NCBI RefSeq assembly: GCF_003334305.1
Contig: NZ_QOWS01000046.1
Direction: 5' to 3' (one strand)
DNA from: Escherichia coli
GTDB taxonomy: Bacteria > Pseudomonadota > Gammaproteobacteria > Enterobacterales > Enterobacteriaceae
Length of the DNA stretch: 7,574 bases
Every line of letters begins with the position of its first letter. Positions within the stretch are counted from its first letter, which is position 1. Shown here in pieces: positions 113 through 147 of the stretch. Below the pieces are notes generated by a model. That model did no database searches, had not been told where the DNA came from, and was given only the letters and a program-made list of their open reading frames with translations. The translations under genes and the position numbers were made by a program.

Positions 113-147
113 GTAGGCCGGATAAGGCGTTTACGCCGCATCCGGCA
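113..147. repeat. REP (repetitive extragenic palindromic) element
   Basis: gtaggccggataaggcgtttacgccgcatccggca matches the canonical E. coli REP consensus (GCCGGATAAGGCGTTTACGCCGCATCCGGC) with an imperfect palindrome. It lies in the intergenic space between convergent genes, a typical REP location. Confidence 0.85.

Follow-up and report, generated by a model that had tools for sequence, protein, structure and literature searches.

What is the REP at positions 113–147 of a 7,574-nt stretch of Escherichia coli DNA (hereafter the window), which genes does it lie between, does it stand alone, and how much does its junction vary from strain to strain? The sequence-only reading of the window described a single canonical REP between the 3′ end of nlpE and the yaeF stop, unpaired, at a possible site of strain-to-strain variation that might serve REP-associated transposases as a target. 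We are highly confident of a fuller account, in which the element is the y unit, on the right-hand side, of the BIME-1 at nlpE–yaeF, and the z1 unit of that BIME-1 has taken up a 1,279-bp IS621.

A y-type REP at 113–147

The sequence of the element, GTAGGCCGGATAAGGCGTTTACGCCGCATCCGGCA, matches the REP consensus GCCGGATGCGGCGTRAACGCCTTATCCGGCCTAC at 34 of 34 positions (window 113–146, − strand, no mismatches; the consensus is our own). Its reverse complement over the full 113–147 agrees at 35 of 35 positions with TGCCGGATGCGGCGTAAACGCCTTATCCGGCCTAC, the 35-nt "known REP sequence" used by Durrant et al. as their REP annotation query (PMC11208160). The number of consensus matches expected by chance is 0.00, as judged from 200 dinucleotide-preserving shuffles of the window, not one of which held a match even with three mismatches allowed. 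Folding gives a hairpin on either strand, with stems of 7 bp and 4 bp separated by a 2×2 internal loop (−20.9 kcal/mol, z = −3.2 on the + strand; −21.3 kcal/mol, z = −4.1 on the − strand), and 0 of 200 shuffles equalled its energy. GTAG and a stem mismatch, the hallmarks of E. coli REPs that TnpA-REP needs (PMC3333891), are both found here (Table 1). By megablast, a 45-nt probe around the REP has a median of at least 28 places per genome across all 5,426 complete E. coli genomes, a lower bound because the search needs a 28-nt exact word and counts at most 40 pieces per record. Consensus match, fold, and copy number together show that the REP is real, rightly placed, and far beyond chance. It is extragenic, between the IS621 transposase gene and the yaeF stop. 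A consensus scan of all 7,574 nt found no second REP, and both the canonical character of the unit and its single occurrence within the window thus stand as first read.

A hairpin of this kind could also be an intrinsic terminator common to the convergent genes, with its likeness to REPs incidental. It is GC-rich, with a folding energy near −21 kcal/mol on either strand, it is followed on the + strand by ATTTTGTG, and strains without a REP have a terminator-like hairpin (AAAGCCGGAG-CATT-CTCCGGCTTT) in the same spacer. However, a simple terminator scan reports no terminator-like site at 113–147 on either strand, and hundreds of dispersed REPs share this identical sequence, which would be unexpected for a locus-specific terminator. 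We consider this explanation very unlikely and treat the element as a REP below.

Table 1. Features of the window and of the compared loci (positions are those of the window unless an L-numbered locus is named; window position 1 is L001 3001)
Feature	Position	Strand	Basis or remark
IS621 last 72 bp, right non-coding end	1–72	+	A7 identity, copy number, empty-site restoration
3′ arm of hairpin begun before the window	1–10		Within IS621 right end
−35-like TTGCAG of IS621 right end	54–59		
IS621 left-donor heptamer ACAGTAT	66–72		
CT core dinucleotide, IS621 right junction	73–74	+	Other copy at left junction, L001 1794–1795
AC, last two bases of interrupted z1 REP	75–76	+	Empty-site allele
BIME-1 L-type linker, 36 nt	77–112		Conserved core
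IHF-consensus-like core ATTCAAAATGTTG	88–100	−	1 mismatch to WATCAANNNNTTR
y-type REP (palindromic unit)	113–147	+	Consensus match, fold, copy number
REP GTAG	113–116		Directly 5′ of stem start at 117
REP outer stem	117–123/140–146		
REP 2×2 internal loop, AA/GC	124–125/138–139		Two-base stem mismatch
REP inner stem	126–129/134–137		
REP loop	130–133		
REP-to-yaeF-stop spacer, 23 nt	148–170		
yaeF pseudogene, 824 nt	171–994	−	REP in its 3′ untranslated region
Linkers compared	L008 about 2075–2111; L010 2014–2050; L012 1533–1567; window 77–112		
Candidate footprint at nlpE–yaeF	L009 1950–2104; L010 1953–2106		
Candidate footprint at rhlE–ybiA	L012 1501–1532		
Candidate footprint in dppA–proK region	L018 1201–1237		
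Candidate footprint at yahI–yahG	L019 1201–1232		
IS621-in-y-REP loci	L015 1601–1663; L016 1601–1663; L017 1601–1663		

The left neighbor

E. coli strain A7 (NZ_CP028767.1, 924609–932182) carries the full window at 100% identity. In A7, nlpE ends 1,264 bp to the left of window position 1 (L001 1737), and a transposase CDS (L001 1987–2967) lies between nlpE and the window, ending 34 bp before it. PGAP names this CDS 'IS110-like element IS621 family transposase', and its product matches NCBIfam NF033542 ('IS110 family RNA-guided transposase') at 254.5 bits (cutoff 140). Window 1–72 is present in 1,678 of the 5,426 E. coli genomes, with a median of 8 and a maximum of 27 copies; nlpE is a single-copy gene. 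The first 72 bp of the window are the tail of IS621, up to its right end, and hence the supposed 3′ end of nlpE is IS621 DNA.

A solitary, partnerless REP immediately flanked by the 3′ end of nlpE and the stop of yaeF, as first read, is what the window shows when taken alone, since it holds a single detectable REP and an open frame at 1–66, TALCLACLQSGKPDQEKTCRP*, runs off its left edge. That frame is spurious and not NlpE, because window 1–72 is the multi-copy right end of IS621; the true C-terminus of NlpE in A7, 1,264 bp upstream, is different (...NKDCSSLGQ*). The partner z1 REP, moreover, sits immediately to the left of the IS. We give a solitary unit next to no credence. Of the original placement, the yaeF side is correct (stop TGA at window 173–171, − strand, 23 nt from the REP), whereas the nlpE side has to be replaced by the IS621 right end. 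For annotation, the left window edge should be labeled IS621 and not nlpE, and the REP should be labeled as half of an IS-disrupted BIME-1.

Insertion of IS621 into the z1 unit

Choi and co-workers are said to have reported in 2003 that IS621 inserts into REP sequences, reportedly with a reference length of 1,279 bp. The left junction in A7 reads ...GCCTGATGCGCTGCGCTTATCAGGC-CT|TGTATTATCC... (...ATCAGGC CT|TGTAT...), and the right junction ...CCATAACAGTAT-CT|ACAGCATATAATGC... (...ACAGTAT CT|ACAGCA...), with its CT at window 73–74. When L001 1796–3074 (1,279 bp, IS621 plus one CT) is removed from A7, the result is the nlpE–yaeF spacer of strain WP3-S18-ESBL-09 at 154 of 154 nt, and the flanks of the reconstructed site align with that strain over 1,021 nt with no gaps. 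The insertion point in the z1 unit, ATCAGGC|CT|AC, is the published natural IS621 target in REPs, ATCAGGCCTAC (PMC11208160), and CT is the published recombination core (PMC11208158, PMC11208160).

The empty site in WP3-S18-ESBL-09 has a z1 REP on the + strand (GCCTGATGCGCTGCGCTTATCAGGCCTAC, then AGCATATAATGC...), a 36-nt L linker, and, on the other strand, the y REP, tail to tail, and BIME-1 is defined as z1 and y units joined tail to tail via an L linker (PMC3333891). What remains of z1 in the window is its last four bases, CTAC at 73–76; the z1 body is outside. The earlier statement that there is no BIME pair is therefore true within the window, whereas the genome as a whole shows the REP to be the y member of a z1–L–y BIME-1 with z1 split by IS621. 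The proposal that the junction could be a transposase target fared similarly: it is indeed occupied by a mobile element, IS621, but the enzyme is a DEDD/Ser bridge-RNA recombinase of the IS110 family and not a REP-associated tyrosine transposase (RAYT).

The linker core TGCAAyNTwTTGAATTwGCAyG..TTTTGTAGG is kept in the BIME-1 copies at nlpE–yaeF, rhlE–ybiA, and rlmG–rnpB. Its conservation across three unrelated loci indicates that the linker belongs to the repeat. Both the L linker and an IHF site within it have been described (PMC3333891), and the candidate IHF site found here in the linker is consistent with a BIME-1; IHF-like matches in the window as a whole number 5 against 6.4 expected, which is not above chance. 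The 36-nt linker beside IS621/z1 differs completely among nlpE–yaeF alleles that are otherwise near-identical, and in strain 2013C_3277 the nlpE–yaeF linker is identical to that of the rhlE–ybiA BIME-1 of the same strain. Such a patchwork suggests that BIME-1 copies at separate loci may exchange short patches (gene conversion).

In this copy of IS621, the 191-nt left end holds four guide-like segments, ATCGGGCCT, TGCGTAG, ACAGTATC, and CAAG. The first is the specificity that the bridge RNA's target-binding loop encodes, according to the published work (PMC11208160). TGCGTAG is the complement of CTACGCA, CAAG is the complement of CTTG (the core and the first left-end bases), and ACAGTATC corresponds to the left-donor half seen at window 66–72. 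By its sequence, then, the non-coding left end carries putative guide segments matching both the REP tail and the joined ends of the element itself. No Rfam match to a bridge RNA family was found over the IS and the junction. The same transposase accession (WP_000399648.1) and the same 1,279-bp length recur at three other REP loci, which points to recent transposition.

Two further observations concern transcription around the right end. On the − strand, a hairpin (ACAGCGCC GTCA GGCGCTGT, then TTTTTTT; L001 3010–2991) straddles window position 1 and has a terminator-like score; this site would halt transcripts running into the IS from the direction of yaeF. In an excised circle, the TTGCAG of the right end together with the left end would give TTGCAG-17 nt-TATTAT. 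The circle-junction promoter is published as having its −35 box outside the 22-bp donor (PMC11208160), and we infer that TTGCAG may be that box, which is consistent with the published promoter. An outward hybrid promoter, made of TTGCAG and the perfect TATAAT that the host linker carries at 81–86, was considered and rejected: the spacing is 21 nt, and no + strand promoter is predicted.

The y unit as a possible IS621 target

Read on the − strand from 123 to 113, the REP is ATCCGGCCTAC, and the same sequence serves as an IS621 target at other loci. A probe joining the y REP to the IS621 left end gave 100% matches, and by a probe-coverage criterion this junction is present in up to 1,459 genomes. 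At three loci read directly (hypF–norW, rlmG–rnpB, and yjgA–mpl), IS621 lies within y REPs identical to this one, at ATCCGGC|CT|AC. Natural copies are thus found at this sequence too, and not solely at ATCAGGCCTAC, the one quoted as the natural target. These insertions rule out the idea that IS621 spares y REPs owing to the C at tail position 4 (ATCCGGCCTAC, not A/G), and they fit the tolerance that has been published for position 4 of the target.

At nlpE–yaeF itself, a probe combining the yaeF flank, the y REP, and the left end found IS621 in the y REP in 0 of 5,426 genomes; the best matches to this probe were without the yaeF-specific flank. Given IS621 in identical y REPs elsewhere and none here, the REP at 113–147 would be a usable, unoccupied second IS621 target, oriented oppositely to the copy already present.

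Strain variation at nlpE–yaeF

The suggestion that this junction varies between strains, and that the nlpE–yaeF region should be compared for REP number and orientation, is borne out. Spacer alleles, read directly in eleven strains, are 29, 154/155, 173, 199, and about 1,433 nt long, with 0 to 2 REPs, and both REP number and REP orientation differ among them. Frequencies come from exact counts over the 5,426 genomes or from a 60-row sample, an evenly spaced draw from the ranked genome matches; where both are available, the sample proportions (IS621 in 8 rows, K-12 type in 20, no REP in 7) agree with the exact counts.

The occupied allele, BIME-1 with IS621, is found in 694 of the 5,426 genomes with window 1–300 contiguous and accounts for the spacer of about 1,433 nt. 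The empty BIME-1 allele (154/155 nt; 18 of 60 rows) includes an ST131 variant with point changes. The K-12 / O157:H7 allele (199 nt; 1,916 of 5,426 genomes) has lost the z1 body and carries an L remnant, y, a short linker, and z2. This BIME architecture is present in about 35% of genomes. In the copy that we read (L003 463–661), a 22-nt gap in z1 leaves CAGGCC alone, and extra sequence is present. A 173-nt allele with z1, partial L, and z2 occurs in 2 of 60 rows, as does a 155-nt allele, here called the "footprint" allele. The allele with no REP (29 nt; 522 of 5,426 genomes) consists of a perfect, bidirectional terminator-like hairpin, TTGAAAGCCGGAGCATTCTCCGGCTTTCA; in the two copies read (L004 680–708 and L011 680–708), the arms AAAGCCGGAG and CTCCGGCTTT flank CATT, and the BIME alleles are without such a hairpin. 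The y unit is present as one copy, in constant orientation, in every allele except those of 29 and 173 nt.

The nlpE–yaeF locus is a clean natural case of bridge-RNA-guided insertion into a REP. The occurrence of occupied, empty, REP-free, and "footprint" alleles among sequenced strains makes the locus handy as a marker and as a natural testing ground.

Candidate footprints of IS621

Some z-type REPs end in ...TTATCAGTATCTAC instead of ...TTATCAGGCCTAC. Four loci were verified (nlpE–yaeF, rhlE–ybiA, dppA–proK, and yahI–yahG), and at the last three the right flank is different at each. At nlpE–yaeF, the spacer of O111:H8 strain SF26 is the A7 allele minus 1,278 bp, exact over 155 nt, with 1 mismatch in 1,695 nt of flanks. 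SF26 reads ...TTATCAG-TAT-CT-ACAG... where the empty site has ...TTATCAG-GC-CT-ACAG...; it keeps the last 8 nt of IS621 (CAGTATCT), with the crossover within the shared CAG. Exact probes for the motif find the z2 version in 767 genomes and two z1 versions in 188 and 109 genomes, the version found in 188 reaching as many as 9 places in a genome.

We tentatively propose that REPs ending in ...TTATCAGTATCTAC are footprints left repeatedly by non-canonical IS621 loss, through a 1,278-bp deletion with a crossover in the shared CAG, a reading that we hold to be possible but stop short of calling probable. The crossover would occur in the CAG common to the left half of the target (ATCAG|GC) and the right end of the IS (AACAG|TAT), and the pattern looks like a recurrent, non-scarless loss dependent on CAG microhomology. 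A y-type analogue (…TTATCCGTATCTAC) had no exact match; such a motif would be without the CAG microhomology. The nearest matches to it were set aside as an unrelated REP variant, …CCGTTCTAC, at hcxB–ybiJ.

IS110 excision has been described as scarless. If the proposal is right, IS621 is not always lost without a scar, and that description would need qualification. The footprint would also destroy the ATCAGGCCTAC target and leave a donor-like CAGTATCT in the chromosome, which could immunize the REP against reinsertion or could instead act as a pseudo-donor for bridge-RNA-guided rearrangements. A weak literature check found no prior report of an IS621 footprint. The footprint alleles are the sole item here that might possibly be new.

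yaeF and possible roles of the REP

On its right, the REP faces a damaged gene. Aligned to the intact 825-nt yaeF, the copy in the window has 5 mismatches and a single gap, a 1-nt deletion near window 445 where one C is missing (GCCAA-AGTGC versus GCCAACAGTGC in the intact gene), and its open reading frames are split (171–482 and 413–1048). PGAP calls yaeF 'frameshifted' in all strains of the lineage that we examined (A7, WP3-S18-ESBL-09, EH031, O111:H8, and 2013C_3277). A REP hairpin at the 3′ end of an mRNA classically impedes 3′–5′ exonucleases. With yaeF a pseudogene in this lineage, there is no obvious beneficiary of such stabilization.

Could the REP instead specify a nucleoid-associated REP RNA like naRNA4 / REP325? 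The Rfam model RF02564 aligns to L001 3116–3185 (window 116–185) at 46.1 bits (E = 1.5e-6), and the y REP is an exact match to the model's first hairpin. That score, however, is below the gathering threshold of 59.5, and the second model hairpin falls on unrelated sequence across the yaeF stop, the z2 unit being absent here. The match owes everything to the y REP hairpin; what the model takes as its second hairpin is an imperfect inverted repeat, GGCTGGCT...AGTCAGCC, at about 160–186. We rate an RNA of this type as highly improbable, and the y unit of a disrupted BIME-1 remains our reading of the element.

The following mechanism is proposed beside what was read directly at this locus, namely the sequence, copy number, exact empty site, target match, left-end guide segments, and strain polymorphism. 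The IS621 recombinase would be guided by a bridge RNA encoded in the left end of the IS, whose pairing partners would be ATC(A/G)GGC-CT-AC, in the tail of the REP, and ACAGTAT-CT-TG, where the IS ends are joined; recombination at the CT core would then place IS621 in the z1 unit. The y unit would stay a usable, currently vacant target. By analogy with established REP biology, the REP RNA hairpin, 23 nt past the yaeF stop, may act as a 3′ stabilizer or partial barrier for − strand transcripts, and it may present the same barrier to + strand read-through out of IS621. Transcripts of the − strand that pass the REP would reach the hairpin + T7 terminator-like site in the IS621 right end. As DNA, the REP pair and its linker may, again by analogy, be a site for IHF, gyrase, or RAYT.

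Comparison with known systems

The REP, BIME-1, and IS621 parts are known biology; every component is of a known kind, and no new principle is involved. Relative to naRNA4 / REP325 (RF02564), the y REP supplies the sequence of the first hairpin, whereas the second (z2) hairpin is missing here and the score stays below the gathering threshold. The agreement with the BIME-1 y unit (RIP/RIB; Bachellier/Gilson, PMC3333891) extends to these particulars: the same 35-nt imperfect palindrome, preceded 5′ by GTAG and with two mismatched bases in its stem, the same tail-to-tail pairing with z1 through a long, conserved L linker with an IHF-like core, and the same single occurrence at the locus, with no tandem array, in an extragenic position between convergent genes. 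It differs in that the z1 unit is here interrupted by IS621, and all that the window contains of the pair is y, its linker, and four bases of z1.

The known IS621-in-REP system has the same 1,279 bp, CT at both junctions, and the target ATCAGGCCTAC in the REP tail. The IS110-family recombinase is the same, the left-end segments ATCGGGCCT, GTAG, ACAGTATC, and CAAG match the target and donor halves in the same way, and identical copies likewise lie at many REP loci. Where the extended match of the IS621 guide has GCA, the bases past CTAC on the right are here AGCA. Landing in REPs is known behavior of IS621, which makes this case an ordinary one. Compared with that system there is no substantive difference, and the copy at nlpE–yaeF is one further natural copy of it.
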